From positions 1 through 58,979 of the forward strand of contig JAXGJB010000013.1 in NCBI GenBank assembly GCA_040770465.1: 58,979 nt of DNA, given 5' to 3'. A program made the translations under genes and the position numbers. Source of the stretch: Methanothrix sp. (lineage in GTDB: Archaea; Halobacteriota; Methanosarcinia; Methanotrichales; Methanotrichaceae). The notes under the pieces were generated by a model. That model searched no databases. It was not told where the DNA came from and saw only the letters and a program-made list of their open reading frames with translations. Shown in pieces: positions 18,049 through 56,897 of this stretch (the first letter of the stretch is position 1; each line of letters starts with the position of its first letter).

Positions 18049-18106
18049 AGAAAGCTTGTTCGTTAGCCGACGCAGCAGAAGATCGAGGGGAAGGCAAAGG
18101 AGCTGG

Positions 18107-41225: not shown

Positions 41226-41921
41226 GTGGCGAGCACTACATACACCCCCCTCTTCTCCGAAAAGATCCGAAACTGCAGGACCCAGATTAGGAGAAACGAC
41301 CCCGAGTCTCCCAAAGATGCCCTGGATCGGCTGAACAGGCTATCGAAGGATGCGGCGAACTCGTCGAGCATCGAGAGGCTTCTGGGGATCGAGGGCGCGG
41401 CGGCGGAGATATACTTCGGGAGGCTCGACCGTCTCCTCAAATCCGATCAGGGTTTCACTTTCGCGAACAGGAACAGAAGGCCCCCGAAAGATCCGGTGAA
41501 CGCCGTCTTATCCTATCTTTACGCCGTCCTGGCGAAGGACGTCTTCGTCTCGCTTCTGGCGGTGGGGTTTGACCCATATCTCGGGTTCTACCACCGGCCG
41601 AGGTACGGCCGTCCAGCTCTGGCGTTGGACATGATGGAGGAGTTTAGGCCGATCATCGCGGACTCAACGACGATCAATCTCTTCAACAACGGCGAACTCA
41701 CTGATAAGGACTTCATCAAGACGGGGATGGGCGTCTCCATGAAACGTCAGGCCAAGAGAACGGTGCTGGCTGGCTACGAACGGAGGATGCAGACGGAGAT
41801 CGATCATCCCATATTCGGCTACAAGGTGAGCTATCTGCGAGTCTTGGAGGTTCAGGCCCGGCTCCTGTCCAGGGTCATCTCCGGCGAGATAAAGGAGTAC
41901 CCTGCCTTTGTGACGAGGTGA
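41226..41921 (+). pseudogene. cas1: Cas1, C-terminal ~2/3 only (5'-truncated; resembles type I-G Cas1)
   Basis: LLGIEG..A..YF, NRRPP.DPVNA.LSY, DPYLGFYH, ALALDMMEEFRP; N-terminal beta-domain absent and aldehyde dehydrogenase directly upstream. Confidence 0.85.
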
Positions 41922-41925
41922 GAAG

Positions 41926-42222
41926 GTGAGAGGACGAAATTGCTATGTGGTGAGCTACGACATCATGGAGCCGAGACGGCTTCAAAAGGTCCACAAGACG
42001 ATGAAGGGCTTTGGAGATGCCGTTCACTACTCCGTCTTCCGCTGCGATCTCACCCCCAAGGGTCGGGTGGAGATGATAGCAGCGCTGACGGGTCTCATAA
42101 AGCATGACGAGGACAGGGTGATGATAATCGATCTCGGCCCGGTTGAGGGGATGGCGGAGGATAGAATAGAGTTTCTGGGGGTCCACAGCCCCAAAGAGAA
42201 GGAGAATGCGATCATCGTATGA
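41926..42222 (+). CDS. cas2: CRISPR-associated endonuclease Cas2
   Basis: YVVSYDI..PRRLQKV...GFG..VHYSVFRC...DRVMIIDLG. Confidence 0.95.
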   Translation: MRGRNCYVVSYDIMEPRRLQKVHKTMKGFGDAVHYSVFRCDLTPKGRVEMIAALTGLIKHDEDRVMIIDLGPVEGMAEDRIEFLGVHSPKEKENAIIV

Positions 42223-42557: not shown

Positions 42558-42736
42558 CTATCCATGGCTGAAAAGTCGTGGCCCCATTGAAACATTTTCC
42601 ACTTAGTGGATTTAAGAACATATATACATGTTGGGCTATCCATGGCTGAAAAGTCGTGGCCCCATTGAAACATCTTAATCAATCCTTAAAACTTTGGGTT
42701 GTTTCTAGGCTATCCATGGCTGAAAAGTCGTGGCCC
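42558..42736 (+). CRISPR. mini CRISPR array: 36-bp repeat CTATCCATGGCTGAAAAGTCGTGGCCCCATTGAAAC, 2 full repeats + 1 truncated, 2 spacers (42 and 38 bp)
   Basis: repeats at 42558-42593, 42636-42671 and 42710-42736 (cut after 27 nt); CCATGGCT-GAAA-AGTCGTGG hairpin. Confidence 0.95.
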
Positions 42737-42892
42737 AGCAAGCCATGCCCTTCTGCCCTCATAACCGGCATCATCGGCTGGCGGCACTGTCATGTTGTGG
42801 TAGCGTCATGCAAAAATCACTTGCGTATCGTCACAGTCTATTGGCCGGAGGATGATGAATGGATAGACCACATGACGAGAAGAGAGAGCTGA
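42737..42892 (+). pseudogene. C-terminal remnant of a DUF4258 (RelE/BrnT-like) toxin fused to the truncated repeat
   Basis: KPCPSALI.G...HCHVVVA...LRIVTVYWP...W.D...R; precedes the YgiT-type gene. Confidence 0.7.
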
Positions 42893-43152
42893 TACCCGAC
42901 GTCTGCAGCTGCGGCCGAGGCAAACTCGCGCCCGGCGTCACGGATTATATCACAAGAGTCGAGGGGAGCGTTCTGGTTATCAAGAACGTACCAGCCTTGA
43001 TCTGCGACATCTGCGACGAGGCTTATCTTACTCCGGAGGCTTCACGGGAGATCGATCGGGTCGTGAAGGAGTTTCGGGAGGGGAGGCTTCTTGCAAAGCC
43101 GATCGCAGCCGGCGAGGTCGACCTCAAGCTCAAGATGAAGGAGACGGCCTGA
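42859..43152 (+). CDS. YgiT-type zinc finger / MqsA-like antitoxin
   Basis: CSCG...LVIKNVPALICDICDEAY; start uncertain. Confidence 0.8.
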   Translation: MDRPHDEKRELIPDVCSCGRGKLAPGVTDYITRVEGSVLVIKNVPALICDICDEAYLTPEASREIDRVVKEFREGRLLAKPIAAGEVDLKLKMKETA

Positions 43153-43209
43153 GCGGATCGGGACGGAACGCCGGCGCGATCTCCGCTCCGCCCGAAAAAT
43201 GACCTTGCT

Positions 43210-43476
43210 TCAGGCTTTCTCTTCAGGAAGAGCGGAGACGTCCAAGAGGTCGGCAATGACATCTTCAACAAGATGCGATACGGACCGTCTTCTCTTATGA
43301 GCCAGCCTCTCCAGTTCGAAAAACGCCGGCTCCGGCAGCTCGACCAGCACTCGGCGCAGCTTCTCATCCCTCTCAAATCCCCGCCACCGGGCCTCAGATT
43401 CCTCTGCATCCTCGAAGGCGTCAGCAGCTGAAAGCACCTCTTCTTCGGGCTCGTGGGGCAAATACTTCTTCTTCAT
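43210..43476 (-). CDS. small RHH/CopG-like putative antitoxin
   Basis: VLVELPE..FFELERLA..RRRSVSHLV; overlaps the DUF3368 stop. Confidence 0.6.
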   Translation of the reverse strand: MKKKYLPHEPEEEVLSAADAFEDAEESEARWRGFERDEKLRRVLVELPEPAFFELERLAHKRRRSVSHLVEDVIADLLDVSALPEEKA

Positions 43477-44057
43477 CTTATGGCATCCTCAGATCGTCTT
43501 ACGAGATTGTCGTAGATCTCGTTTATAAACCTGGACGAATAATGCGTCCCCTGTCTCTGGCACTCCTCCAGCGCCCTCCGCAGATCCTCTGGCTCAATTA
43601 TCCGCTCCCGACAAGCTCGAATTAAGATGCCAGGAAATCCGATTACAGGCACTTTTCTTTGTTTGGCGACATCCCTTGCGGCCAGCTCATCGATGAGCAA
43701 TTCGACTGCCTGAGAGTTGCTCCGGAGCATCAACACAATTGCAAAGGACTCCGGAAGGTGATGGAGGGGATTTTTATCCCTGGAAATCCGATGGTTGGCG
43801 ATCTCGTCTGCTACAGCCCTGGCAGCATCGCATTCCTCTGGCGTGAAATCCTGGCAGATCACGATGAAACCCGCCTCCAATAGCTCGTTGATTTCAGCAT
43901 CTGCTCCATGCTTTTGATATTCGGGGATTTCGTCTGCAGGTATGAGCATCTGATCGTAGAACGATAGCAGAATGTGCATGCAATCGGATTGGAGGGCTGA
44001 AATCAGCGGACCTGTATTGCTGACGGCAACTCTTGGGCTCGATTGAGTCGTGGGCAT
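43473..44057 (-). CDS. DUF3368 / PIN-domain putative toxin
   Basis: VSNTGPLI, HLPESFAI, LLIDE.AAR.VA, G..GIL. Confidence 0.8.
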   Translation of the reverse strand: MPTTQSSPRVAVSNTGPLISALQSDCMHILLSFYDQMLIPADEIPEYQKHGADAEINELLEAGFIVICQDFTPEECDAARAVADEIANHRISRDKNPLHHLPESFAIVLMLRSNSQAVELLIDELAARDVAKQRKVPVIGFPGILIRACRERIIEPEDLRRALEECQRQGTHYSSRFINEIYDNLVRRSEDAIR

Positions 44058-44236
44058 TTGCTCAATTAAATGTAGACATCTTCCTATAAAAGATCATTTA
44101 TCGACCATCTCGGCAAAGATCTGCGCCGGACCGCTATCCATAATCGGCTGAATACCATTCGATGCCCCGGACCTTCGGAGCGCGGTGAAATCGCGACCTC
44201 GTCAAGCTTATATTCAATTGCTGTAAACACTACTCC

Positions 44237-44464
44237 ATGTCAACTTCGGTTTACAGCATCCGTCTGGAGAGCGAAGTCCGGCGGATGATGGACGAGATGA
44301 GCGAGGTCGACTGGCAGGCCGAGATCAGGAAGACGGTGGAGACGATGGTCCGGGAGAGAAAAAAGAGGATGCTCCTGGACCGGGCAGAAGCCCGCTGGAG
44401 TGAGCAGGTCGACGGCGCCGAGGGCGCGGCGTCGATGATAAGAGAGGACAGAGATGCGAGATGA
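44237..44464 (+). CDS. vapB: VapB-like antitoxin
   Basis: SVYSIRL...VDWQAEIRK...MIREDRDAR, overlaps the vapC start. Confidence 0.8.
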   Translation: MSTSVYSIRLESEVRRMMDEMSEVDWQAEIRKTVETMVRERKKRMLLDRAEARWSEQVDGAEGAASMIREDRDAR

Positions 44465-44889
44465 TATGCGAGATGAATATGCAAGATAAGGCCGTCCTCG
44501 ACTCCAGCGTCATCGCGGCCATCTTCTTTTTTGAGGAGGCTTCCGCCAGAGCGCTTGATATGGCGGACGGATGCGATCCCGTCACCCTGGACCTGGCGGT
44601 CCCAGAGGTGGGGAACGTGGCCTGGAAGCGGGTCGCGTTCTCCGGCGAGGACGAAGGAACGGCCATCGCCGCCCTGCGGGACTGCCTTGAGTTTGTCAGG
44701 GAAACCTGCGCCCTCCTCGAATCGGCTGACCTCCTGGAGGAGGCCTTCGAGATCGCAGTCCAGGATAAGGTATCAGTTTACGACTCCCTCTTCCTGGCGG
44801 CGGCAGAGAGCGAAGGCGCTCCGCTTCTGACCCTCGACAAGAAGCTGTATGAGAGGGTGAAAGAGAAGAGGGATGTGCGTCTCGTCTAG
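44461..44889 (+). CDS. vapC: VapC PIN-domain toxin
   Basis: VLDSSV, EVGNVAWK, SVYDSLFLA.A, LLTLD. Confidence 0.9.
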   Translation: MICEMNMQDKAVLDSSVIAAIFFFEEASARALDMADGCDPVTLDLAVPEVGNVAWKRVAFSGEDEGTAIAALRDCLEFVRETCALLESADLLEEAFEIAVQDKVSVYDSLFLAAAESEGAPLLTLDKKLYERVKEKRDVRLV

Positions 44890-45053: not shown

Positions 45054-46188
45054 GAGGATTTCGAAAAACCTAATTATCGTAATGTTTAAATAGTATTAAT
45101 TACAATTAATTGTTATGAATACTTTTTCGGCCTGGGCGTTCCGAGAAGTTTACAGTAAGCAGAAATCAGAGAACCGGCTCTTGCAGATAGTTGATATCAT
45201 AGACTGGAAACCTATTCGCGAGCTACTTGAGGAGATGTACCGGAACAAAAGCGAGAAAGGTGGGCGACCTAATTGCGACGTTCTGATGATGTTCAGGATT
45301 CTGATACTTGAGGAGTGGTACGGTCTAAGCGACCTTGAAGTTGTGAGACAGATCAAGGATCGTGTGTCGTTTATGGGATTTCTTGGTTTTCCGGAGCGGG
45401 TCCCTGATTCCAGCACGGTATGGCTGTTCAAGGAGCGGATGATAGAGACAGGAACGTACGATCGAGTCTGGGATGAATTCAGACATCAGTTGGATTCTAA
45501 GGGACTAATGGTGAAACGTGGAACAATCCAGGATGCTACATTCATTGAAGCTGATCCTGGTTCATCTAAAAAACCTCGTGGTGATCAAGCTAAAACTCGC
45601 CGAAGCAAAGATGGCACGTGGACAAAGAAGGGTGAAGAGCTTCACTTTGGGTATAAACTTCATTCTAAAGTAGATTTGGACTATGCACTTATCCGTGAGA
45701 TAGATACGACCACAGCAAAGGTCCACGATAGCAGAGTCGATCTTTCCGTTCCAGGAGAGGTGGTGCTTAGAGATAAGGGATATTTTGGGGTGCCTGCGAG
45801 GGGTGAAGATTTCACTATGAAGAGAAGGACGACGGAAAGACCGCTGGATGAACTCGAAAATGAACGGAATCGGCTGATAAGTAAGCTGAGATCACCTGGA
45901 GAAAGACCCTTCGCGGTTATAAAGCGAGTTTTTGGAGCAGGCAGGGTTCTGGTTACAACTATGAAAAGGGTTCATGGTAAAATGATAGTTGCAGCCATCG
46001 CGTATAATCTGTATCAGCTATACACACTAAAAAGAGCGGAGGTTATCTGAAGATAGCGGAAGCTATCTAAAATTGCTGAGAATTAGGCCAAATTAAGAAG
46101 ATATGGCGCGTGAGCGGGGCAAATATGACGCTGATAATTGGATTTGGGGACCAAAACGCGCTCTCTCAACCAGTAAATCGAAATCCTC
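45054..46188 (+). mobile_element. IS5-family insertion sequence (~1135 bp)
   Basis: 11-bp terminal inverted repeats GAGGATTTCGA (45054-45064) / TCGAAATCCTC (46178-46188); lower GC; no obvious target-site duplication. Confidence 0.8.
45115..46050 (+). CDS. IS5 family DDE transposase
   Basis: GGRP, LSD, PD.ST...F, IQDAT, FGYKLH, DKGY, R..GERPF..IKR, YNL. Confidence 0.93.
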   Translation: MNTFSAWAFREVYSKQKSENRLLQIVDIIDWKPIRELLEEMYRNKSEKGGRPNCDVLMMFRILILEEWYGLSDLEVVRQIKDRVSFMGFLGFPERVPDSSTVWLFKERMIETGTYDRVWDEFRHQLDSKGLMVKRGTIQDATFIEADPGSSKKPRGDQAKTRRSKDGTWTKKGEELHFGYKLHSKVDLDYALIREIDTTTAKVHDSRVDLSVPGEVVLRDKGYFGVPARGEDFTMKRRTTERPLDELENERNRLISKLRSPGERPFAVIKRVFGAGRVLVTTMKRVHGKMIVAAIAYNLYQLYTLKRAEVI

Positions 46189-46197
46189 GAATAATAA

Positions 46198-46734
46198 TTA
46201 TATTTTTTTAACCAGCTGTTCGGCGAGAGGCCCCATTCCAGCAGAAGACTTCTCCAGAGTGATGATATGCTTATATGTACCCTTTTCGAAGTTGAATACC
46301 TTCACCGGCACCCAGTTCTGGAGCCTTGAACCTATATAAATGGCGAGATCAACGGGTCCAGCATAGAAGAGGAGAACCTCCGTCGCCCCTCCTTCCAGAG
46401 CCATATCTTTAAAACCGTTTATCTTTGCCATCGCCTCGAGATAGTCCTTCGGCTCCAGCCAGTTCGCTCCACTCTTCCAGCTGAGGAGGGGGACATTTTC
46501 CCAGCCCCGTTCCTTCAAATAATTTCCGACGGTTGTATCCAGGTCTTTGCCGATGCCTATCGCCATGGCGAAAGGCTGTCTTGATAGCTCCACCTCCTTT
46601 CCTTCAAGAGAGACTATCATCCGGGCCAGCTCCTTCTTCTGCCTACGCAAGGTCAGGCTGAAGTATAGAAATAACGAAAAAGATATCAGCGTCGCAAAGC
46701 TGGCCATCAATGATACGATCCCGATCCAGGTCAT
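46198..46734 (-). CDS. membrane-anchored protein with a single SAVED/CARF-like nucleotide-sensor subdomain
   Basis: N-terminal TM helix (aa ~3-28), helical linker, then LLFYAGPVDLAIYIGSRLQN..PVKVFNF..GTY, matching the SAVED C-terminal motif. Confidence 0.7.
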   Translation of the reverse strand: MTWIGIVSLMASFATLISFSLFLYFSLTLRRQKKELARMIVSLEGKEVELSRQPFAMAIGIGKDLDTTVGNYLKERGWENVPLLSWKSGANWLEPKDYLEAMAKINGFKDMALEGGATEVLLFYAGPVDLAIYIGSRLQNWVPVKVFNFEKGTYKHIITLEKSSAGMGPLAEQLVKKI

Positions 46735-46807
46735 CCTGATCCCGCCTTTTCAGAGCTTCTCCTCTCGATCGCTCTATTGTTTATTATTGTTTATTATTGT
46801 TTCTCTT

Positions 46808-47107
46808 TTATTCTTCATAGAGCAGCACCATATCCTTCTCGACGCGAGGCCTGACGAAGGGGCTCAAGGCCCTCTCGCTGACGAGCTCAACCTCGCGCCC
46901 CAGAATCCGTGCCAGCTCCTCTTCGAGCCCGAACCACTTGAGGCCCAGGGGAGGCCTCTCGCCGGGTGGGAGCAGATCCACGAGTATATCGATGTCGCTA
47001 TCCTCCGTCTCATCGCCCCTGGCAAAGGAGCCGAAGACCGCGATCTTCTTCGCGTAGGGACGAAGCAATGGAACTATCTTCTGTTCAAGCTCGGCGAAAC
47101 GGTCCAT
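46808..47107 (-). CDS. minimal nucleotidyltransferase (MNT), no adjacent HEPN
   Basis: FGSFARGDETEDSDIDILV...LGREVELV. Confidence 0.9.
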   Translation of the reverse strand: MDRFAELEQKIVPLLRPYAKKIAVFGSFARGDETEDSDIDILVDLLPPGERPPLGLKWFGLEEELARILGREVELVSERALSPFVRPRVEKDMVLLYEE

Positions 47108-47133: not shown

Positions 47134-47595
47134 CTATGACATACCCAGCTTTGCTTTTATCGCTCGAATATCCTGCTCCATCCGGAGGAGCCTATCTTCT
47201 CGGAGACTTTCGGCCGTCTCTCGGGTGTTGCTCTCGATCTCCTGAATGATGGGGATGGCCTTGACGATCTGGCCAGCGGTGAGGATCATGGCGAAATCGG
47301 TCATCTTTGGAACGAATCCGTCAAAGTCTCCGGCGAGAACCTCTGATACCTCCGCCTCTTCGGGCCAATTCATCTCCGCAAAGGCGGAAAAGGCTCTGAC
47401 CGCCTCCCTCGATCCTTCTACAATCACCAGCACCTTCTGCCGCCGATCTCTTCCCACCTGGTTTGAAGCAGCAAAGCCATCGATGCCCAAAAGCATGGCC
47501 TGGTTCATCAGGAGATATCTGTAGCCCACGCCGTGGACTTTTTGTCCGATGATCTCAATTTTCTCTTTTGTCCTCATCTCACTCATCATTTCCAT
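47134..47595 (-). CDS. acylphosphatase-domain protein with a C-terminal helical/coiled extension
   Basis: IIGQKVHGVGYR...GIDGF..N...V.VIVEG. Confidence 0.8.
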   Translation of the reverse strand: MEMMSEMRTKEKIEIIGQKVHGVGYRYLLMNQAMLLGIDGFAASNQVGRDRRQKVLVIVEGSREAVRAFSAFAEMNWPEEAEVSEVLAGDFDGFVPKMTDFAMILTAGQIVKAIPIIQEIESNTRETAESLREDRLLRMEQDIRAIKAKLGMS

Positions 47596-47738: not shown

Positions 47739-48077
47739 TTAGACCAGGCCATCCGGCCTCGGGCCGCCTTTAAGAGGGCGGCTTGCATCGTCACGAGGCA
47801 ATGTCAAGTCCACCACCTGCCCCACCGCCCACACCCGGCTGTGGGTTGCGACCACCACCGCCCCGAGCCGGGGATCGTAGAAGGCGATCGCCGCCGCGGG
47901 CGATCCGTGGAGGAGGTGGAGCGCCATGCCGTACCGCCAGATGGGCGCTCGCCCCTCGACGACGACGAGGGACCCGCGGGGGATCTCCGGGAGGGGCGGC
48001 AGCGGCTCATTGGGGGTGATGGGGGCACAGACGCCGATGGGGTAGATGACGGTGGAATAGATGGCGGGGGCTGTCAT
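47739..48077 (-). CDS. csx3: Csx3 (Crn3) ring nuclease family protein
   Basis: VVVEGRAPIWRYGMALH..H...AFYDPRLGAVVVATHS. Confidence 0.88.
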   Translation of the reverse strand: MTAPAIYSTVIYPIGVCAPITPNEPLPPLPEIPRGSLVVVEGRAPIWRYGMALHLLHGSPAAAIAFYDPRLGAVVVATHSRVWAVGQVVDLTLPRDDASRPLKGGPRPDGLV

Positions 48078-48475
48078 CACTCTTCTCTCATTCCTCTCCA
48101 TTCCTCACTCAATGATCGCTCAGAAATTATCTGCTCGAGCTGGCCCGCCAGGTCCGGCAGGTGGACGGTGACGACCTCCCAGACGAGATCCTGTTTTATC
48201 GCTCCATAGTTATGAGCGAGAACATTCCTCTGGGCTATGATGCCCTTCCACGGAATTTCAGGGTGTTTCAGCTGAAGATCCATAGAGACGTTCCGTGCCG
48301 CTTCACCCATTATCTCCAATGCGCGCTCAACCGCCAGCTGAAGCTTTCTGTCGTTGAGATATGCATCAAAATCCGTTCCCTCAATGAAATCGAGGATCGC
48401 CGATGCAGCATCCAGCATATCCCAGATGTAAGCTGAATCTCGAGGTTCTCGATCTTCAGGCTCCATAGGCTCCAT
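48077..48475 (-). CDS. HEPN/DUF86 (HepT-like) RNase toxin
   Basis: AVER.LEI.GEAA, IPWK.I...RNVLAHNY. Confidence 0.9.
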   Translation of the reverse strand: MEPMEPEDREPRDSAYIWDMLDAASAILDFIEGTDFDAYLNDRKLQLAVERALEIMGEAARNVSMDLQLKHPEIPWKGIIAQRNVLAHNYGAIKQDLVWEVVTVHLPDLAGQLEQIISERSLSEEWRGMREE

Positions 48476-48767
48476 AGATTACCTCCATTCCGGCGAGAAT
48501 AGAGCGCCGCCGGTAGGGATTTCGAATCGACTCCCTATCCACCAGGTCTATCTCTCGGCCGGTTATCTTCTTCAATTCCTCGATCATTTCCACCCAGTCG
48601 AAGAGGGTCCATCGGGCTTGCTCGAAGAAGGTAACCAGAAAATCAACGTCGCTCTCCGGACCAAAATCTTCCCGGAGAACCGATCCGAAAATAGCCATCT
48701 CCTTTACCTTCCATCGACGGCAGAAGTCTTCAATCTTCTCCCTGGGTATGTCGATTCTGGATGGCAT
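48456..48767 (-). CDS. MNT antitoxin (MntA-like)
   Basis: FGSVLREDFGPESDVDFLV; overlaps the HEPN start. Confidence 0.9.
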   Translation of the reverse strand: MPSRIDIPREKIEDFCRRWKVKEMAIFGSVLREDFGPESDVDFLVTFFEQARWTLFDWVEMIEELKKITGREIDLVDRESIRNPYRRRSILAGMEVIYGAYGA

Positions 48768-48947: not shown

Positions 48948-49094
48948 TCATTCCTTGATCCTTCCCCCCTCGATCTGATCCAGCGTCACATCCACATCCA
49001 TCACATCTCCCACCGCCCGCTTTCGGCTGTGGACGGCGACCACCACCGTCCCGAGGCGGGGGGGGGAGGAAGGCGATCGCCGCCGCGGGCGATC
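48948..49094 (-). pseudogene. csx3: second, truncated and frameshifted csx3 copy (3' half)
   Basis: AAGGCGATCGCCGCCGCGGGCGATC identical to 47881-47905; encodes SPAAAIAF / RLGTVVVAVHS; +1 shift in a G9 tract (49058-49066). Confidence 0.8.
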
Positions 49095-49108
49095 TCTGGG
49101 TTGTCCGA

Positions 49109-49972
49109 TCAAGCTCTTAGTTTCCAGACACCAAACCTGTCCACTACTAGAGGGAGATCCTCACATGCTATGCTTCCAGGTGTAAAGCACACATCGCTGA
49201 ATCCAACATGCTGGCCTGCATAGCAGTTGCGTGGGTGATTCGATTGCCATTCACGACCCACCAACGGCTCGACATCACCGGCAACTGATAAGCCTTCGGC
49301 CACAGCATGGGCCAACAACCGTCCACCCTTCGGGAGATGAATGCTCGGTCGATCTCTTTCGCTGTCGAAGGTTGCCAAATCCCCGAACAAGTGTTTATCA
49401 GCATCTACTTCTTTGATTCCTACTAATTCCACATCGCCCCAGCCATATCCGCGCTCGCCGCCGAGTTGAAGGCGTCTGAATGCCTCCTGCCACTTGAGAG
49501 TGCATCCATCCTTTTCAAACACGTGTCCGGTCAAAAAGACAGGTTCGCCCGTATCCAACGTTCGTGGAGAGACGAATTCGACCTCGTGTAGAGATCCTTC
49601 GGTAGCCGACTGAGCAGGGTAGGATAGAGAAGTCCCGGCATAGCTGCTCAGAAAGCGGCGACGGAACACGCTTAAGTTCTCCCAAGGCCATTGAACAGAA
49701 TGGCTTTCGTGGCTGTTTGATTTCAGAGCAGGATAAAAGTAGGTAAAAGCTAAAAGTCTGTGGACTTGATCTCCGAACTGATGGTACTGCTGAGAGTTCG
49801 TTGCCGGGCCACGTCCATGATATGCGTCGCGCGTTAGTCGCATAGTCAGAGCGCCCCAAAGCGCTCGACCAGTTACGTAGGGACGAGTGCGCTGAAGATT
49901 GCCCACTTTGCTATGGCCGATGTGTAGCGGTGACCGCAGCCGCAAAACCACCAGATATGCCTGCCAGCTCAT
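49109..49972 (-). CDS. cmr3: type III-C Cas5-group RAMP (Cmr3-like)
   Basis: L.SPLHIG, GRALWGAL, LGGERGYGWG; last gene of the cmr1-6-10-4-5-3 order. Confidence 0.72.
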   Translation of the reverse strand: MSWQAYLVVLRLRSPLHIGHSKVGNLQRTRPYVTGRALWGALTMRLTRDAYHGRGPATNSQQYHQFGDQVHRLLAFTYFYPALKSNSHESHSVQWPWENLSVFRRRFLSSYAGTSLSYPAQSATEGSLHEVEFVSPRTLDTGEPVFLTGHVFEKDGCTLKWQEAFRRLQLGGERGYGWGDVELVGIKEVDADKHLFGDLATFDSERDRPSIHLPKGGRLLAHAVAEGLSVAGDVEPLVGREWQSNHPRNCYAGQHVGFSDVCFTPGSIACEDLPLVVDRFGVWKLRA

Positions 49973-49983
49973 GCAGATACTCC

Positions 49984-50388
49984 TCAACTGCGCGCTTTGG
50001 CCCCGTAACGGGCGTAAATTAACATTTGCTCAAGTGTCTCTTTCGCCAGCAACAGTCGCTCTAGACCGCCTTGCTTTGGATCACCCGATACTTTGTCAAT
50101 AATGTGTTGAAGGATCTGTTCCACACCGTTGCCGCTGGGCTTACCCCATCCAAAGCCGAGTCCCTCCAGTAAATTGAGCATCTCATCAACGACTACCCTG
50201 CCATTATCCTTTTCTTTCGCCAACAGATATAGGAAACAGGCATAGACGCCGTTTTCCTGCAGTACACCCAAGGTTTTTGTGACCGTATTATCAACTTCGC
50301 TTGCTTTTTTATTCTCCGTGCGGTGAATGATTTCTTGCGCATGTTTCGCTGCCAACCGGTCGAGGTTAATTTGGGCATTGCAAGTCAT
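49984..50388 (-). CDS. cmr5: type III-C small subunit Cas11 (Cmr5-like)
   Basis: helical 134 aa; LGVLQENGVYA...LEQMLIYARY.AKA; GGAGG SD. Confidence 0.78.
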   Translation of the reverse strand: MTCNAQINLDRLAAKHAQEIIHRTENKKASEVDNTVTKTLGVLQENGVYACFLYLLAKEKDNGRVVVDEMLNLLEGLGFGWGKPSGNGVEQILQHIIDKVSGDPKQGGLERLLLAKETLEQMLIYARYGAKARS

Positions 50389-50417
50389 TATTGAACCTCC
50401 TGAGCGATTTTTTGGTG

Positions 50418-51404
50418 CTACGAATCTATGCCGTATTCCTCTTCTATCGAGTCGCCGACAATAGCAATGCGGCCAAAACCGCGTGTACCCATTCCACCCA
50501 CACCCAGCCACTCTATCATCCGCAAACCATCTCTCACAACGTCCAATGGGCCTGACCATTTCGCGTTTCCTGGAAGTACATTCTTCTTTGCGGTTTGGCT
50601 TTGCGCATTTCCAATTAATGGCCAAGTTTCACGGTAGTCGTCCAGCATTACTTCGGCCGTCAGAAATGTAGCTCGGGGCAAAGCTTCGTAATTGAAGAGC
50701 GCCTTATCCTCGGCTGCGCCGCGCTCTGGATCAATCGCCACCGAGGTGCGAACCTCCAGATTGCTGTTGACAATGTGGCTGAAAAGTGTGTCGTTTACGA
50801 TGGCAATCTTATCCTTGATGATTTTCCAGCGCTGATCGTTTTGCCATTGCCCCGGAGCCTCAGTGGTTGCCTTTCCAGCTACGGTCACCATAAGCCAGCC
50901 CAGGTTGAGTGCATCCTGGCGGTCCCAGGTCAACATAGCAGCGCCAGAATCCGTCATTTCCGACAATTTCCTATTATCCTGCTCTTCAAACGTGAACCCT
51001 GCTTCTCTCAGGCGCTCCAGTGTGCTCACCCATACAGGTCCAGCCATGGAATACACAGGGAAAAGAACTACATGCGCATCAAAGATGTTGACCACGCCGG
51101 AATAGGCCTTCGTTTCATCGCTGTCCTGTTTTTTCTTGATATAACCAAAGGTGTAACAGACAGGGTTTTTATCCGGGTCCGCCACTTTGTCCTGACTCTG
51201 CCCGGCGGCCTCAGGCGTCTCGTAAAGCTGGGCTGTGTAGGAACGCACTGCTCCATGCAGGCTGGTGCCTGGAATTTTAGGTATGCGTGTGCCAGGCTCC
51301 CTCACAATGCTGTTATCCACCCGCCCAAGGCGGTAGCCGCCGGTGCCGATATGCGCCGGATCGAGTGTCATTAACAAATAGCGTTGCCGCTTGTAGGTTG
51401 CCAT
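50418..51404 (-). CDS. cmr4: type III Cas7 backbone Cmr4
   Basis: HIGTG...VDNSIVRE...PKIPGTSL.G, VLFPV.S, LFNYE.LP, GVGG..TRGFG; catalytic Asp present. Confidence 0.92.
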   Translation of the reverse strand: MATYKRQRYLLMTLDPAHIGTGGYRLGRVDNSIVREPGTRIPKIPGTSLHGAVRSYTAQLYETPEAAGQSQDKVADPDKNPVCYTFGYIKKKQDSDETKAYSGVVNIFDAHVVLFPVYSMAGPVWVSTLERLREAGFTFEEQDNRKLSEMTDSGAAMLTWDRQDALNLGWLMVTVAGKATTEAPGQWQNDQRWKIIKDKIAIVNDTLFSHIVNSNLEVRTSVAIDPERGAAEDKALFNYEALPRATFLTAEVMLDDYRETWPLIGNAQSQTAKKNVLPGNAKWSGPLDVVRDGLRMIEWLGVGGMGTRGFGRIAIVGDSIEEEYGIDS

Positions 51405-51414
51405 ATATGCCCTC

Positions 51415-54186
51415 CTATTCCTTCATAATCTCCATGTGAAGTTCTGCCCAATCGGTCAATTCACCGGATACACCGGCTTCCACCAACAGTTTTCGATCAT
51501 CTTCCGAAATAGCGATCCATCCCTGCCCTTTCGGCCATGAAGCACCGGCCAGCGTGTCAGCTACAAACTGCCGGAATATCTCGTCGTCTACCGACTCGCC
51601 ATCAACATCCTGCCCATACCACGTCTCGCGTGTAGCTTCTATTGTGTGGATGGTCTGATAGCGTTGGCTTTTAGCTAGGCGCCTCATGTATTCCCAGAGT
51701 TTTTCCAAACGGTCGAGGTCTTCCAAGTAAAAAGGCCGCGTTCGACGCGGACGCTGGCCATCGGCATCGTAATGGATGTCAAAGCGGCGAGCGGTGGTGT
51801 CAAGAAACTCGAAGTCGAAGGTGGATGGCCATATCTTGATCGTTTCGCCGACCTTCAAGTCAGCGGCATGGACAATCCATCTATCGGCATTGTCTCCTTT
51901 TTCTGTTAGGATTGTGACTTTAACCGCGCGACGGCTTGAAGCATCTCCCTTACTGTCGTCACCTTCTGTATCCAAAAAGAGATAAGGATACCATTGATCG
52001 TTGGGCACACGCCACCGTATTTGGTAGCTATTCCGCTCAAGTTCTAGCGTTATCGGTGCTTTTTCGTCGCTCGTTTTTCTGATATCCCATGATTGTTGCC
52101 GCGATGGGTAATTGAGCATCGCCCGGCCAGCATCGAGCACGGCGCGAATCGGCGTGCGGCGAGGAGCAAAGACTAAACCCAAATGCAAGGGCAGTCGGTC
52201 GCGCACTTTTCCCATTTCGGCTTCGTACTTCGTCTTGATGGTTTCGGCTATCTTGAGAGCTGTATCAGCCGGAACGACCATCATAAATTTGCGCGGCTCG
52301 GCAAGAATTGGTATGGCCGCAGCATATGGGATTTGTTGCCAGTCAGCGCCTGTAATTCGACAATCTGCCAGCAAATTACGGCTGCGCTGGCCTTCCAATG
52401 CATCAGAATTTCGCAAGATCGGTTGGCGATTGTTAATCACAAACTGCGCATTTAAGTTATCGCTAACGAAAATGGCAGATGCTGCCGGGTCGATGTATAC
52501 GATTGATTCCGCGCCCAATTGGCGCGCAATGTAGCCTAAATTGTCAGCGGTAATCAAGTAGCCATTATTGCTATCTTGAGGCGGAACCCAGACCACACTA
52601 AGGTTTGTTGCACCCAAATCGAGGTCATACACATGATAAGGTTCTAGATTGGGGATGGTGCTTAGAATGATTTTGATCCGGCGGCGTCCATCAGCCAGTT
52701 GGCGCAAAATATCATCTTGTGACCTCTGCCAGAATAAACGCGTGGTCTCCCAAATGCGCCTGAGTCGGCTGAATGAGGGAGCTTTGCTAGTAACTGGTTT
52801 GCCATCAGTATTCAGTGGGTCGTGAGGGGCGATCAACAACAACGATTTCAGCATGCTTCCATCTAGCCAATGGGTCAGCTCAAACCGCCCCACCAGCAAT
52901 GCCAAGCGTCCATTTGTGTCGGCGACTTCATCGGTCCAAATAGTTTTGTCTGGTTCTGTGGTTGCCCATTTCTTTGATCTATCATCCCGTCGTTCCTCAC
53001 AAATATCACACACGTTGCGCTTGCTAGCCTTCTTCTCCGGGCCTTTTGGACGCAACCCGCATACGGTGCAGATGTCATCAGGCTCGCGATCTTTCCAGAA
53101 CTGGTCAATGCTAGCGGCATTGGCAGGTGAACTCATCTCGGTGGATATGAAGCTACTAATGTTTGGCAGTATGTCGTTAGATTTTGTAGATGTTTTCCGC
53201 CAATTGGGATCCTGCCCCCACCATGAGGTTGATTCGAGTTCTATATGCGGTGTAATTTCCCCGCCGAGCTGAAGCTTGGGATTATCTTTCAATCTCCCGT
53301 GTTCAAAGGCTTGCAGAATTAGCGTGATCAAGTTTGTTCCTGAGCCATTGGATATTTGAAGCAAGTCAGCAATATCAGGTACGACATAAACGCTGCCGTT
53401 TTCATCTCGATACACTTCGCTGCCTAGAGGATAGGTTATCTCGATAAGATCACGTACATTGTTGAGCCCATCAGAAAGTAATTCTTGCCTTGCCAACAGA
53501 TCTGGTATGCGTGCTACATTGAAGAGATAATCGAGACCATTCACACGAATGCCCAAAAGCCGCCAACGAAGATCAGGAGCATCCAGCGTTCTACCCATCA
53601 GTAGCGATCCAGCTAGCGCAGACTTGTACAAAGCACCCACCAACAAACCCCAGTTCCATAGGTCTACTTCGTTGATGGGGCGGCGTGTGTCGGCAACGGT
53701 TTTAGAAAACAGTTCACTTACGGTTTTTCGCAGATCTTGTCGTTCGGAAGCAGTATAGCTCGTTAGCTTGTCCCAAGGCAGGTTCCAAAGAGACCCGGTG
53801 AGACCGGACGGAATATTCCCTTCGAAGCCGAAGGAGGTGCTTATTCGAATATCAGCACTTTTTCTAGTCTTATCAACAGGATTTTGCTTATCAAAATGAG
53901 CAGTGTTATGGCAACGGGATAAATAGCTTAACAGATTAGTAACATTTCGGTCTTTAGCTTTTCCCCTCCAACTATTGAGCAATTCGTTGATTGACACGGT
54001 TTGAGCGTGCAGAGTGAGATTAAGTGAACTAAGAGAGGGATATTTAGTCGTTAATTCTTTAGGTTCCGGTAATTTTCCACCAAATATTTTTCCATCTGAG
54101 CATTTTTTATAATCGTGCAACCATCCGATCGCTTCTGCAAGCAAGAGTGCATCGCGCTTCATCGCTAAATCATCAAGCTGAGTCAT
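51415..54186 (-). CDS. cas10: type III-C Cas10 (Csx11-like): HD domain and Zn finger, degenerate Palm, no GGDD
   Basis: GWLHDYKK, DTRRPINEV.LW, CTVC...CDIC..RR, PSFSRLRRIWET, EMGKVRDRLP; alternative GTG start at 54204. Confidence 0.88.
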   Translation of the reverse strand: MTQLDDLAMKRDALLLAEAIGWLHDYKKCSDGKIFGGKLPEPKELTTKYPSLSSLNLTLHAQTVSINELLNSWRGKAKDRNVTNLLSYLSRCHNTAHFDKQNPVDKTRKSADIRISTSFGFEGNIPSGLTGSLWNLPWDKLTSYTASERQDLRKTVSELFSKTVADTRRPINEVDLWNWGLLVGALYKSALAGSLLMGRTLDAPDLRWRLLGIRVNGLDYLFNVARIPDLLARQELLSDGLNNVRDLIEITYPLGSEVYRDENGSVYVVPDIADLLQISNGSGTNLITLILQAFEHGRLKDNPKLQLGGEITPHIELESTSWWGQDPNWRKTSTKSNDILPNISSFISTEMSSPANAASIDQFWKDREPDDICTVCGLRPKGPEKKASKRNVCDICEERRDDRSKKWATTEPDKTIWTDEVADTNGRLALLVGRFELTHWLDGSMLKSLLLIAPHDPLNTDGKPVTSKAPSFSRLRRIWETTRLFWQRSQDDILRQLADGRRRIKIILSTIPNLEPYHVYDLDLGATNLSVVWVPPQDSNNGYLITADNLGYIARQLGAESIVYIDPAASAIFVSDNLNAQFVINNRQPILRNSDALEGQRSRNLLADCRITGADWQQIPYAAAIPILAEPRKFMMVVPADTALKIAETIKTKYEAEMGKVRDRLPLHLGLVFAPRRTPIRAVLDAGRAMLNYPSRQQSWDIRKTSDEKAPITLELERNSYQIRWRVPNDQWYPYLFLDTEGDDSKGDASSRRAVKVTILTEKGDNADRWIVHAADLKVGETIKIWPSTFDFEFLDTTARRFDIHYDADGQRPRRTRPFYLEDLDRLEKLWEYMRRLAKSQRYQTIHTIEATRETWYGQDVDGESVDDEIFRQFVADTLAGASWPKGQGWIAISEDDRKLLVEAGVSGELTDWAELHMEIMKE

Positions 54187-54200
54187 CTTTCTCTCCCTCC

Positions 54201-55274
54201 TCACCTCAACTGCTCAGCTAGGTAAGGCTCCAGTTCTTCGCAGAGTTTGTTCAAGCTATTGAATGAGTATTCTGAAAAGTAAACAATTTTGGCTGCTGGC
54301 TTTGAGATTTTGCCGTCCAATTTCGCTCTGATGGCCATTTTGCCCTCCTCCACCAATTGATCCTCCGCTGTCCCGAATCCACTGCTGGTCTTTGCGCCGA
54401 AGCCGTTGATGGTGAGCATCTCACGAATGCCTTTTGCAAGCACCTGCAAATCCTCAGCTACTTCAGCACGTATGGCCTCGTCCGTCTGCCCTATAGGGCC
54501 AAAGGGTACGTAGATTAAGATGAACTCTCCCCTCGCTCCTTGCGGCACGCACTCCAATAGGATCGGCCCACGTACACCGATGCCGGTTTTGCGGTCGTGG
54601 GGGTTGATGACCTCTAGACTAATATCTTCGAAGAAGGTGGGGAAGAAATGCAAGCGTCCAGCTTGCTGTTCTTCGCTCTCACGCTTATTGCCCAGAAGGC
54701 GAATGGTGACCTTATCATCTTGCTTATAGCCCAACTGCCACAAAGCAGCACGCAAAGAGCCCTTCCAACTCGTCGCCGCAACCATCGGCGTTTGAAAGAC
54801 TTTTTCTTTGCGCAGCGGGTTATCGAGAAGGTTAAAGTCCCTTTCATCTTTGCTAAGGTAGGATTTCCGCAAGCAGAAGGGAATACGAAGCATAAAGCTC
54901 AAAGGCGGCATGTAATCGACAACCGATGTTTCGGGGAGAAAGTGGAACTCTGGTGGAATAGAACTGATAGTCAATTTTTCAAGCCAGGCATCGCGGATAA
55001 CTTCGTCAAGCTTAGAATTGCAGGCCTTAAACCAAAGATAAGCCAGGTGGGGCTCGATCATAACGGCCTTGTCAGCAGCCTGCTCCATTTCTTCTTTAGC
55101 CTTAATGATAGCGTCTTTGGCCTCCTTGACAGCATTTTTACGTTTCTGTTGGTCACGGATCTTTTTCGCATGATTCAACTGCCAATTTGCTTGTTTTTGT
55201 CGCTCTTCAGCCCCCACAAGCTCGCTCAGGATATCGTTCAATTGCATTTGCTGGAAGCTGTAGTATTCACGCAT
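54201..55274 (-). CDS. cmr6: type III-C Cas7-group RAMP Cmr6
   Basis: SWKGSLR, GRLHFFPTFF, VINPHDRKT, PI..E.VP.G, GFGAKTSSGFG. Confidence 0.82.
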   Translation of the reverse strand: MREYYSFQQMQLNDILSELVGAEERQKQANWQLNHAKKIRDQQKRKNAVKEAKDAIIKAKEEMEQAADKAVMIEPHLAYLWFKACNSKLDEVIRDAWLEKLTISSIPPEFHFLPETSVVDYMPPLSFMLRIPFCLRKSYLSKDERDFNLLDNPLRKEKVFQTPMVAATSWKGSLRAALWQLGYKQDDKVTIRLLGNKRESEEQQAGRLHFFPTFFEDISLEVINPHDRKTGIGVRGPILLECVPQGARGEFILIYVPFGPIGQTDEAIRAEVAEDLQVLAKGIREMLTINGFGAKTSSGFGTAEDQLVEEGKMAIRAKLDGKISKPAAKIVYFSEYSFNSLNKLCEELEPYLAEQLR

Positions 55275-56289
55275 TAGGATCTTCCTCCAATCCCAAAAGA
55301 GTCCGCAAAAACACGTTTACATCGTTGTTGTCTCGGATAACGGTATCACGAGCTGAATTCATCTCTCGCCAGACCTGGATATTGTATTTTTCTCTCAAGG
55401 TCAAGTAGATAGCCTGCACGATAGCATTCCGATTTTCAAAATTCTGGGCGCTTGGTAGTTCTTTCGGAATCCATCCCCAAACCCGCATCTCATTGTTGCT
55501 ATTGTATGGGCGGGACATCTTAACCTTCGCAGCTATCCGCTCATTCCTGTTTGTTGTGCCCATAACGAAGTGGCGCAATTTCGTGTCGTTCTCATCCTCA
55601 AACAGCCGCCGCAAGTCGTACTTCAAGTTGAACGTTTCATTTTCGTCGAAAGGCCTCCCATCCTTAGAAGAAACGCGCGCCAGAAAGACGTTTTGCAGGG
55701 AAGGTAATTCTGGATCCTGAGGATTGCTTGCAACTGTTTGTAGCCGATTATAGAGCGGTTGGGTGTCAACTCTGCCGTTTGCAAGTTCAATGACCCCAAA
55801 ACCCATTTGCACCCGCGCGCCGATCCCAGCCCAATCAGCGATGAACTGAACAAGGCCAGCAACGACTTCTGGACGGAAATCCGTCGCCAAGCTTTGGATC
55901 TGTATCGTAAGCTTGCCTGAGCGTGGTTTGTCATTTAGTTTTGCTGGAAAATACCATTTAGACGTGTGTCTGGTCTTCCAGATTTGAACATTTTTAACTC
56001 GTCCGTCTGGATACAAGCCTGTATCCCGAATAACCAATCGAAACCTGCGCTTCCAACCGGTGGCTCCAAAGACCCGACAGACGTCGCACAGGCCCTCATG
56101 GTCCTTTTCTTCGTCAAAGGCACAATCTGCCTTACTTGGATCACATGCATCTCCACCCAGGCCCCGAACAATGACCTCATACCACCAGCGCATACTACCG
56201 ATTATGCCTGTTTCGTGGATGCGATCCACTTTGCCCGCTTGCACCCCGCCAGTCCATAGAGGCGTAAGAGTTTGAATTCTAACATCCAT
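55267..56289 (-). CDS. cmr1: type III-B/C RAMP Cmr1
   Basis: TLTPLWTGG, ETGIIGSMRWWYE, C.VC.VFGATG, GIGAR..GFG; start reassigned to ATG 56289. Confidence 0.9.
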   Translation of the reverse strand: MDVRIQTLTPLWTGGVQAGKVDRIHETGIIGSMRWWYEVIVRGLGGDACDPSKADCAFDEEKDHEGLCDVCRVFGATGWKRRFRLVIRDTGLYPDGRVKNVQIWKTRHTSKWYFPAKLNDKPRSGKLTIQIQSLATDFRPEVVAGLVQFIADWAGIGARVQMGFGVIELANGRVDTQPLYNRLQTVASNPQDPELPSLQNVFLARVSSKDGRPFDENETFNLKYDLRRLFEDENDTKLRHFVMGTTNRNERIAAKVKMSRPYNSNNEMRVWGWIPKELPSAQNFENRNAIVQAIYLTLREKYNIQVWREMNSARDTVIRDNNDVNVFLRTLLGLEEDPNA

Positions 56290-56324
56290 AATAATTTCCT
56301 GCCATATAGTCGATCTCCATCCAC

Positions 56325-56525
56325 AAACCCCCCCATCCCGAAGTGTGCCCCGCGCCCCAGCGCCACCGGCCCCCGGACGGATTCTGCAAACTCGATCCGG
56401 AAGCCGTACCCGGCGGACCCCGCCCGTCGCCACAGGTTCGCGCCCTCCGGAAGCTCGACCAGCCGACCCTCTCCCCGGCGATCTCGGTGGAGGTGACCGG
56501 CTCGACGGCCTCCAGGAATCCTGCG
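56325..56525 (-). pseudogene. csb2: diverged duplicate of the csb2 3' end (Cas6 glycine loop), frameshifted
   Basis: aligns by eye with ~57394-57605; 7-bp deletion in the GDGRRAG segment. Confidence 0.85.
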
Positions 56526-56892: not shown

Positions 56893-56897
56893 TTTAG

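Follow-up and report, generated by a model that had tools for sequence, protein, structure and literature searches.

A membrane protein family with a single SAVED-like unit is a candidate effector of type III CRISPR loci

A gene of Methanothrix sp. encodes a protein that appears to join one transmembrane (TM) helix to half of a SAVED domain. The gene lies on a stretch of 58,979 nucleotides (contig JAXGJB010000013.1 of assembly GCA_040770465.1, positions 1 to 58,979 of the forward strand), which is called the window below. According to our computational analysis the protein belongs to a family of type III CRISPR ancillary genes, and every Cas10 gene found near a family member in other loci keeps the GGDD cyclase motif. 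We give about even weight to the reading that the family is a minimal membrane effector which cyclic tetra-adenylate (cA4) switches on and which works by ligand-driven oligomerisation. The window copy departs from the genomic pattern of the family. An initial annotation, made from the letters of the DNA and a list of open reading frames (ORFs), had described a single-TM protein with half a SAVED domain and proposed it as a candidate membrane effector of cyclic-oligonucleotide signalling. The observation is confirmed, and the interpretation is partly supported. Loci are denoted by L, stored homologous proteins by P and other contigs of the window genome by C, each with a number.

Results

One SAVED-like unit behind one transmembrane helix

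Two general SAVED profiles match the protein slightly above their cut-offs, and both matches are confined to the end of the profile. Pfam SAVED (PF18145) gives 27.7 bits (cut-off 26.2) over profile positions 142–190 of 190, and NCBIfam SAVED (NF033611) gives 35 bits (cut-off 33) over positions 169–260 of 261. The PADLOC profile 'SAVED4--SAVED' (PDLC02008) is covered almost from end to end, with residues 55–162 on positions 3–101 of 104 (E 1.8e-26); relatives of the window protein score between E 1e-15 and 1e-21 against it. Weaker PADLOC matches are to 'SAVED4--SAVED_TM', SAVED-Lon/CRISPR-Lon and SAVED-TIR. The 'SAVED4' names of these profiles presumably stem from the 2020 CARF/SAVED classification.

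The same kinship is seen with proteins of solved structure. A hidden Markov model (HMM) built from 76 aligned members of the family was searched against the PDB sequences, and its best relative is the SAVED domain of CCaCalpL (E 1.5e-13), where both halves are matched (C-terminal half, 424–546; N-terminal half, 325–404). The viral SAVED ring nuclease AcrIII-2 follows (E 3.4e-11), then CalpL (E 2.6e-7), Cap4 (E 3.6e-7), Cap5 (E 5.5e-6), TIR-SAVED (E 7e-4) and 3TM-SAVED (E 1.3e-3). A full SAVED domain consists of two fused CARF-like units, and the 178-residue window protein has one, at residues 51–162. Fold-match scores of the domain lie within a range that is also reached by unrelated Rossmann-like proteins. 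As judged by the profile coverage in Pfam, NCBIfam, PADLOC and PDB, the domain amounts to one SAVED-like unit, of the type seen in CalpL and AcrIII-2 ('SAVED4'), and not to a whole SAVED domain, in agreement with what the initial annotation had proposed.

The overall layout of a TM helix, a helical linker and a motif-bearing domain of about 110 residues, also described there, holds for the ORF, its hydrophobicity and its structural model, and the motif is found in the window protein as LLFYAGPVDLAIYIGSRLQNWVPVKVFNFEKGTY. Residues 3–28 reach a best 19-residue Kyte–Doolittle mean of 2.04 and are followed directly by RRQKK. Our homologue set comprises 124 stored proteins, of which 96 are full-length (150–215 aa), and an N-terminal hydrophobic segment, counted when its Kyte–Doolittle mean was at least 1.6, is present in 85 of these 96. 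Lysines and arginines are more numerous behind this helix than ahead of it in 84 of the 85 proteins (means 5.3 and 1.2). An N-out, C-in topology with a cytoplasmic C-terminal domain is therefore predicted for the window protein and its relatives. A second hydrophobic stretch, at residues ~112–130, lies within the domain. In CalpL the helices equivalent to this stretch had once been mispredicted as transmembrane, and the PADLOC label 'CARF, 2 TMs' may have the same kind of origin in the hydrophobic stretch of the domain.

The AlphaFold2 (AF2) model of the window protein, made with a 21-row alignment, has a mean predicted local distance difference test score (pLDDT) of 72.8 and a predicted template modelling score (pTM) of 0.62. 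It consists of one helix over residues 3–45, a strand-helix-strand-helix-strand-helix-strand-strand succession over residues 54–160 and a low-confidence tail; pLDDT falls to ~51–53 across residues 31–50, in the linker region. The gene is real and under purifying selection: dN/dS, the ratio of non-synonymous to synonymous substitution rates, is 0.09–0.16 against eight orthologues. Set against the orthologues of L017 and L018, the gene shows 4 non-synonymous and 12 synonymous differences. Ahead of the gene, in the 73-nt gap between the stop codon of the upstream MNT gene and the gene start, an AT-rich 10-nt unit, TTGTTTATTA, is present in ~2.5 copies (46777–46803) and may be a promoter or TATA-like sequence. 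Coordinates of the gene, its parts and its neighbours are given in Table 1.

Table 1. Positions within the window of the half-SAVED gene, its protein segments and neighbouring features
Feature	Position	Strand	Basis
Half-SAVED gene, 178 aa, ATG start, stop codon 46198–46200	46198..46734	(-)	ORF, homologues, dN/dS
N-terminal TM helix, residues 3–28 (predicted)	46651..46728	(-)	Kyte–Doolittle, homologue segments, K+R bias, helical in AF2 model
Charged helical linker (RRQKKELARM...), residues 29–45, continuous with TM helix (predicted)	46600..46650	(-)	AF2 model
Single SAVED-like Rossmann unit, residues 51–162	46249..46584	(-)	Pfam/NCBIfam/PADLOC matches, PDB profile matches, fold matches, conserved columns, predicted interface
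C-terminal tail, residues 163–178, low-confidence helix	46201..46248	(-)	pLDDT <50 over 163–178
csx3/crn3, cA4-specific ring nuclease family	47739..48101	(-)	Pfam Cas_csx3 E 1.1e-20; TIGR02579 57 bits (cut-off 55.4)
Second csx3 copy, 54-aa C-terminal fragment, abuts III-C cmr3	48948..49112	(-)	Weak Cas_csx3 match; blastn against L020
Type III-C cassette: cmr1, cmr6, cas10c/csx11 (51415–54204), cmr4, cmr5, cmr3	49109..56433	(-)	PADLOC, NCBIfam
MNT-type nucleotidyltransferase, directly upstream of the half-SAVED gene, no HEPN partner	46808..47107	(-)	Pfam NTP_transf_2
Acylphosphatase-like gene, 153 aa, between csx3 and MNT gene	47134..47595	(-)	Pfam Acylphosphatase E 2.7e-9; synteny
IS5-type DDE transposase, just downstream of the half-SAVED gene	45115..46050	(+)	Pfam DDE_Tnp_1, DUF772

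Predicted self-association and putative ligand contacts

The initial annotation had supposed that the half-SAVED domain forms homo-oligomers, and self-pairing is indeed predicted. Two copies of residues 47–178, modelled with a 76-row alignment, gave a homodimer score of 0.60 (0.57, 0.71 and 0.60 in the three runs), whereas the highest of three control scores was 0.01. At least 75% of the contacts are common to the runs, and the pLDDT of the partner is at least 78. In calibration of the predictor the mark was reached by 20 of 30 proteins solved as homo-pairs and by 1 of 23 solved as single chains; these counts hold only roughly here because our own alignment was supplied. The predicted interface is symmetric and is formed by helix 128–138, where G135 faces G135, together with strands 144–148 and 157–160. 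Two positions are invariant across the 76 aligned sequences, F123 and the self-contacting G135, and five more are nearly so (P127 in 74 sequences, Y154 in 73, N140 and W141 in 72 each, A56 in 70). The pseudo-two-fold axis of CalpL passes between the helices equivalent to 128–138, so that the predicted homodimer takes up the outline of a whole SAVED domain. In summary, the single unit is predicted to pair with itself as a symmetric homodimer.

Positions that could touch a ligand were located by combining HMMER alignments to CCaCalpL with the residue numbers of the CalpL filament paper. A numbering offset of 43 was inferred; with it, K330, R358, H396 and H476 fall on residues of the same kind (K, R, H and H) in the sequence deposited for CCaCalpL. 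Family residues N140 and W141, which among polar and aromatic residues form its best-conserved pair, align with H476 and K330, respectively, and according to the CalpL paper these two residues are next to the cA4 phosphate that is held by the adjacent filament subunit. The catalytic H396 of CCaCalpL aligns with family position 63, which is K in 16, G in 18 and T in 8 of the 76 sequences (K in 19 of the 21 sequences of the window's clade), and S395 belongs to an insertion that is absent from the family. The sole histidine-rich column is position 121 (44 of 76), which is L in the window protein and aligns with a CalpL histidine outside the residues named in the available parts of the CalpL paper. 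The window protein has one histidine, H156, and it is unconserved. At position 53, 38 of the 76 sequences have R and 6 have H; in Csx15 the catalytic histidine is H8 (HaCsx15) or H13 (CliCsx15), and an arginine accompanies it. This alignment pattern fits a non-catalytic sensor that would touch the ligand with both faces, i.e. stacking.

A widespread family that shares its unit with Schlafen and TIR fusion proteins

A word-index search retrieved 35 homologues at E<=1e-3 among 217 candidates, mostly of 178–182 aa, and a few of them are named Methanothrix or 'uncultured archaeon'. An exhaustive search of representatives at 50% identity yielded 91 relatives with E<=1e-3, of which 30 reach <=1e-10 and 3 reach <=1e-30; the relatives are mostly 160–210 aa long and matched over their full length. 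In the ESM Atlas there is an adjoining cluster (score 0.93) of 928 members, 182 aa long and mostly bacterial, 70% of which carry Pfam SAVED. The family is thus widespread, and since it is catalogued by PADLOC under 'SAVED4--SAVED' and 'SAVED4--SAVED_TM' it is not an unrecognised one. Our full-text literature searches found no paper that characterises this family. A 2022 review flagged SAVED proteins with transmembrane domains in type III loci as predicted effectors.

Some relatives carry the unit in other arrangements. In P0057 a Schlafen AlbA_2 domain, and in P0096 a CAP12/Pycsar TIR domain, stands ahead of the single unit of the family. P0118 and P0123 have a duplicated, full SAVED domain behind two hydrophobic helices, and P0124 consists of a full SAVED domain alone. 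The alignment of P0057 to CbCash (E 2.4e-32) is confined to the Schlafen part; P0057 is a Cash-like protein, the sensor part of which does not align to the Csx15 domain of CbCash. The word-index search of proteins of 313–2000 aa showed no fused or longer forms, which is weak evidence; the exhaustive search did show longer relatives. No copy of the family was found in a scan of viral contigs, the reach of which is limited to close relatives.

Type III CRISPR context and the adjoining ring nuclease

Genomic context was examined in 76 loci, 13 from species genomes and 63 from metagenomes. The metagenome loci were scanned with a 21-sequence alignment, the 76-sequence alignment being too diverse, and genes were labelled by PADLOC, by tblastn with PADLOC-labelled queries and by Pfam. 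At least one CRISPR label was given by tblastn in 57 of the 76 loci, and Pfam adds one more (L040). Fifteen of the 19 loci without a tblastn CRISPR label are shorter than 3.4 kb. Thirty-one loci reach 8 kb or more; 23 of them have a type III complex gene and 29 any CRISPR label. Cas10 was found in 21 loci and GGDD is kept in every one of them; the translated Cas10 matches are 576–660 aa long in 15 of the 21, and no HD motif was seen in the first 120 residues in 5 of the 7 Cas10 sequences checked. The family is therefore a type III CRISPR ancillary gene that recurs near cyclase-intact Cas10; the window copy does not follow this pattern. The commonest Methanothrix-type layout comprises cmr1, cas10, cmr3, cmr4, cmr5, cmr6, a Can2-like CARF nuclease, csx3, the half-SAVED gene, cas4/cas1 (I-G type) and cas2.

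Csx3 is encoded beside the family gene in 31 of the 76 loci (28 by tblastn; L040, L061 and L076 by Pfam). Among these are Methanothrix-type loci, a Pacearchaeota-type locus that lacks neighbouring cas genes (L007/L038) and the bacterial III-A loci L061 and L076. L013 and L058, both Chloroflexota-type, have a DUF1874/AcrIII-1-like gene immediately upstream instead, with Pfam scores of 24.1 and 23.4 bits that stay below the cut-off of 26; for the L013 protein all four weak PDB matches fall within the DUF1874/AcrIII-1 family. Taken together, a ring nuclease gene (Csx3 or DUF1874-like) adjoins the family gene in 33 of the 76 loci, and the ring nuclease switches family while its pairing with the half-SAVED gene persists.

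Other sensors are frequent as well. A Can2-like, CARF3 or Csx1 label is present in 13 of the 21 Cas10 loci and none of these in the remaining 8, of which L067 encodes a CARF protein (Cas_NE0113) and L011 breaks off right behind cmr6. No other CARF/SAVED protein was found among the scanned ORFs of at least 90 aa in L013, L058, L061 and L076, and none among the labelled genes in L018.

Two further neighbours were noticed. RTasPolA (PADLOC, DRT model; a reverse-transcriptase/PolA-like protein of ~620–640 aa) recurs within a few kb of the family gene in Methanothrix-type loci (L005, L009, L010, L011, L025, L027, L043, L045, L046) and is directly divergent from it in L010 and L011. On the long contigs of L040 and L044, which have no cas genes nearby, a radical SAM gene stands directly behind the family gene (10450–10968 in L040, 10503–11291 in L044) and a TrmB-type regulator upstream; in L040 Csx3 is directly ahead of the family gene.

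Exchange of the CRISPR cassette in the window

The Cas10 of the window is matched by PADLOC Cas10c (E 2.5e-232) and by NCBIfam TIGR02682 (Csx11). It has an HD motif at residue 30, no GG[DE][DE] anywhere and a palm-2 site that reads 'FMMVVPADTAL'. According to a survey of type III loci, those of subtype III-C have no cyclase sites and no known effectors.

Comparison with related contigs (L018, L020 and L022) suggests how the half-SAVED gene came to stand beside such a cassette. The orthologue in L018 is 98% identical to the window protein. L018 and the window are ~96% identical at the DNA level over 48056–46189, which covers csx3, the acylphosphatase-like gene, the MNT gene and the half-SAVED gene, and over 41201–36739, and they are 95% identical over the upstream flank 57559–57389. 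Between those flanks L018 holds a III-B cassette with a GGDD Cas10. In L020 two csx3 copies flank an MNT-HEPN pair. Positions 8004–9260 of L020 match window 49094–47753 by blastn; the first csx3 copy is whole there and survives in the window only as the fragment at 48948–49112, which probably marks one breakpoint of the exchange. As read from these alignments, a III-B cassette has been exchanged for a III-C cassette in the window strain over roughly 49.1–56.3 kb (49094–56320). Because the III-C cassette replaced III-B, the half-SAVED gene and csx3 are left without a cyclase, and together they are probably a recently orphaned module.

Several other features of this region deserve mention. MNT/HEPN (HepT-like) toxin-antitoxin pairs are scattered among the cas genes (46808–47107, MNT alone; 48077–48767; 56551–57302; 58553–58717), and an MNT-HEPN pair precedes the orthologue in L019, L020, L024 and L025. 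The acylphosphatase-like gene is also present in L017 and L018, the closest contigs, and has two distant paralogues elsewhere in the genome (contig C20). The IS5-type element has two more copies, on contigs C27 and C38, with proteins that are 100% identical, which suggests recent transposition; it is absent from the site in L018, where blastn leaves a gap. A Cas4/Cas1 (I-G type) gene, cut to its last 231 aa, directly follows an aldehyde dehydrogenase gene and is itself followed by an intact cas2 (41226–42222 (+) and 42558–42750); in the same region there is a remnant CRISPR array with only three copies of the repeat, of which the third is degenerate. L018 lacks a block of small genes of defence or toxin-antitoxin-like type that the window has (43473–44057 (-) and 42859–44889); the block comprises an MqsA-like and an RHH gene, a PADLOC PDC-S70/DUF3368 protein and a PIN/VapC gene with a small gene upstream of it. 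Elsewhere in the window two ORFs are very long (6757–11760 (+), 1667 aa; 18056–22609 (+), 1517 aa).

Discussion

Relation to known sensors and effectors

By sequence the closest relatives of the window protein are the SAVED4 domains of CalpL and AcrIII-2, with which it shares the strand-helix unit and the aligned region of the FY.GP...G...NW.PV motif. Both proteins act on cA4, on which they form head-to-tail stacks. They have two units per chain and the window protein has one. CalpL is a soluble protein with a Lon protease domain, whereas the window protein has a TM helix in place of an enzymatic domain, and the catalytic S395/H396 of CCaCalpL has no counterpart in its family. The window protein is not a CalpL (Lon-SAVED) protein: it has no Lon match, and the PADLOC CRISPR-Lon profiles are matched only through their C-terminal SAVED part, e.g. 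343–455 of 458.

Csx15 offers a parallel in design. It likewise consists of one Rossmann-like unit (~130 aa) similar to a single SAVED subdomain, forms a symmetric dimer (as predicted for the window protein) and is linked to type III CRISPR. Both families are fused N-terminally to effector or anchoring modules. A 2026 preprint argues that Csx15 is a single-unit forerunner of SAVED and describes Csx15 fused to TM helices as well as to Schlafen, Csx1, EAD and HTH domains. The Schlafen-Csx15 protein Cash has been solved, is activated by cA4 and forms filaments. The TM-helix group of the preprint may coincide with our family. At the level of sequence the family profile (76 sequences) misses CbCash at E<=10, although CbCash was in the searched set, and membership in Csx15 was rejected on this basis; one Csx15 domain was compared and remote homology is possible. 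No Csx15-named model is among the 22 PADLOC families listed at E<=10, and the Csx15 structures 9TEU and 9TET are not among the fold matches listed (library to 2026-04-08). The window family differs from Csx15 in passing the Pfam SAVED cut-off.

With Cam1, Cap1 and Csx23 the window protein shares N-terminal TM anchoring and a small cytoplasmic domain. These proteins have a cA4-binding domain, oligomerise and depolarise the membrane, and ring nucleases occur in the same loci. The initial annotation had left open whether the protein is Cam1-like or represents a distinct family. We found no homology to the CARF sensor domain of Cam1, and the protein is not Cam1; the distinct family is one already catalogued by PADLOC. 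No Csx23 chain is among the fold or PDB-profile matches listed, and absence from these lists is not decisive. The features described for Cam2 and Cam3 (REC domain; six transmembrane helices) do not fit the window protein.

Cap14/2TM-SAVED and 3TM-SAVED of CBASS systems also join TM helices to a SAVED-type sensor, and the filament of 3TM-SAVED bound to 2'3'-cGAMP has been solved. They have a full two-unit SAVED domain, two or three TM helices, an asymmetric dinucleotide and a CD-NTase operon, in contrast to one unit, one helix and type III CRISPR in the window protein. An assignment to Cap14/2TM-SAVED or to a CBASS context was rejected, given the one helix, the one unit and a genome with no CD-NTase (no SMODS match exceeds the cut-off, and the sole weak SMODS-like match is the CCA-adding enzyme).

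A possible mode of action

If the family acts as an effector, its mode of action could be as follows. One N-terminal helix would anchor the protein in the membrane and leave the C-terminal domain in the cytoplasm. Two single units would pair through helix 128–138 and so take on the pseudo-symmetric form that a full SAVED domain has. This symmetric dimer would bind a symmetric ligand, most likely cA4, which would be sandwiched between stacked dimers as in SAVED, Csx15 and Cash proteins. Stacking would gather the TM helices, the membrane would be perturbed or depolarised and the infected cell arrested. The adjoining ring nuclease, Csx3 in the window, would remove cA4 and thereby reset or limit the response. 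The architecture, the homology, the predicted dimer, the genomic associations, the cassette exchange and the shared unit of the Schlafen and TIR proteins come from computation; the ligand, the stacking, the membrane damage and hence the effector function of the family we infer. For the family as a whole the link to cA4, which the initial annotation had found consistent with the neighbouring csx3, is plausible: CalpL and AcrIII-2, the nearest relatives of solved structure, act on cA4, and Csx3 recurs beside the gene. In the window itself a Cas10c that lacks GGDD stands against it.

Several observations weigh against this reading. The window protein has only one TM helix, and no polar pattern conserved across the wider family was found in that helix. 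The confidence of the AF2 model is moderate, and the dimer score may come partly from solved SAVED and CARF assemblies that the predictor has memorised. Csx15, the single-unit relative of SAVED that has been characterised, is a ring nuclease or a non-enzymatic sponge and not an effector; it forms dimers and cA4-driven head-to-tail filaments. Since 13 of the 21 Cas10 loci already carry the label of another CARF effector, the half-SAVED protein is not needed as an effector there. Many loci are close relatives (L008/L043, L017/L018 and L007/L038 are near-identical), so they are not independent and the counts are overstated. As to the window copy, the genome (2.54 Mb in 66 contigs, 94.85% complete) holds no other Cas10, Cmr, Can2-like, Csx1 or CARF3 gene that we could find, nothing visible could activate the protein, and its present function is doubtful.

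Alternative explanations

The behaviour of Csx15 makes it conceivable that the family is a membrane-tethered regulator and not an effector. The protein would then be a cA4 sponge or a slow ring nuclease like Csx15, and the anchor would merely place it, e.g. near membrane effectors. We regard this as the strongest of the alternatives, though rather unlikely. The nearest full SAVED relatives, CalpL and AcrIII-2, are themselves ring nucleases, the frequent presence of another CARF effector would suit a regulator, and Csx15 is reported to be accompanied by a further ring nuclease more often than is the case for ring nucleases of other kinds. The Csx15 preprint, in noting TM-helix fusions, leaves it open whether they tether or disrupt. 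Against the regulator reading, the family has no conserved histidine where CalpL has H396, and the lone histidine of the window protein is not conserved either. A second quencher would be redundant in the 33 loci where a ring nuclease gene is adjacent. In L013, L058, L061 and L076 the half-SAVED gene is the only sensor-type gene found besides the ring nuclease, and a sponge without an effector would make little sense. The fusion of the single unit to Schlafen and TIR effector domains speaks for an effector role too, and the scan of viral contigs, within its reach, gave no sign of a viral copy.

Another possibility concerns the window copy, which might still be in use and receive its signal from a source other than a canonical GGDD Cas10: an unrecognised product made by the III-C Cas10, a cyclase located on a mobile element or in the 5% of the genome that was not assembled, or nucleotides that an invader carries in. 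The gene is intact and differs little from the III-B-linked orthologues of L017 and L018, csx3 beside it is intact as well, and the assembly is 94.85% complete, in 66 contigs. The exchange is recent, however, as the ~96% DNA identity to L018 indicates, and intactness therefore says little about present use. Neither another Cas10 nor a CD-NTase was found in the genome, and III-C loci are described in the survey as lacking both cyclase sites and known effectors. We consider continued use improbable. The genome encodes McrA and thus belongs to a methanogen or close kin, in which the initial annotation expected the protein to collapse the ion gradient. This expectation is not supported for the window strain, where no trigger is visible and the sole Cas10 found is the III-C protein without GGDD.

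It is slightly less probable still that the Rossmann-like unit is no nucleotide sensor at all and serves as a protein-protein adaptor that holds Csx3 or the Cas complex at the membrane, or has some unrelated role: the fold scores would allow it, Csx3 adjacency could reflect a physical partnership and a few long contigs lack cas genes nearby (L007/L038 with Csx3 only; L044 and L048 with none), but the homology to ligand-binding SAVED domains is significant (E 1.5e-13), N140 and W141 align with CalpL residues placed beside bound cA4, and the pairing persists when the ring nuclease neighbour changes family, for which a shared ligand is a better fit than a specific protein contact.

Meaning for the family and for the origin of SAVED

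The cA4-responsive effector reading can be joined with the kinship of the unit in a broader, more tentative proposal. The family might be the surviving single-unit form of SAVED4. In that case it would be an extant intermediate on the way to SAVED, which would have arisen when a dimeric unit was duplicated. It would also be the smallest cyclic-oligoadenylate effector known, with 178 aa and one TM helix; it would kill or arrest the cell only by cA4-driven stacking of dimers into filaments, through which the TM helices are brought into line, and it would be checked across archaea and bacteria by an adjoining cA4 ring nuclease. The family is closer in sequence to the SAVED halves of CalpL and AcrIII-2 than is the one Csx15 domain compared, that of CbCash. 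We see this joint reading as possible, with lower odds than its effector part taken alone.

Based on these results the half-SAVED protein is best described as a catalogued membrane protein with a single SAVED4-type unit as its putative sensor, and with an effector function that has candidate status. At the window locus a III-B and a III-C cassette have been exchanged at one site between ~96%-identical strains, and the accessory genes of cyclic-oligoadenylate signalling were left without a cyclase; the window copy is thus probably without a signal. Specialists are unlikely to be surprised by the family as such, which is nevertheless a good experimental target and informative for the origin of SAVED. 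Should the sponge reading be true, membrane-tethered signal quenching would be extended to a new family. If the effector reading is true, the family would be a very small and widespread cA4-responsive membrane effector, built of one TM helix and a half-SAVED sensor, and it would fill some of the gaps where surveys count loci as 'ring nuclease without effector'. It would also provide a simple system in which to see how ligand-driven stacking of sensors becomes membrane damage, and a second lineage besides Csx15 in which to test whether SAVED arose from a dimeric single unit that was duplicated.

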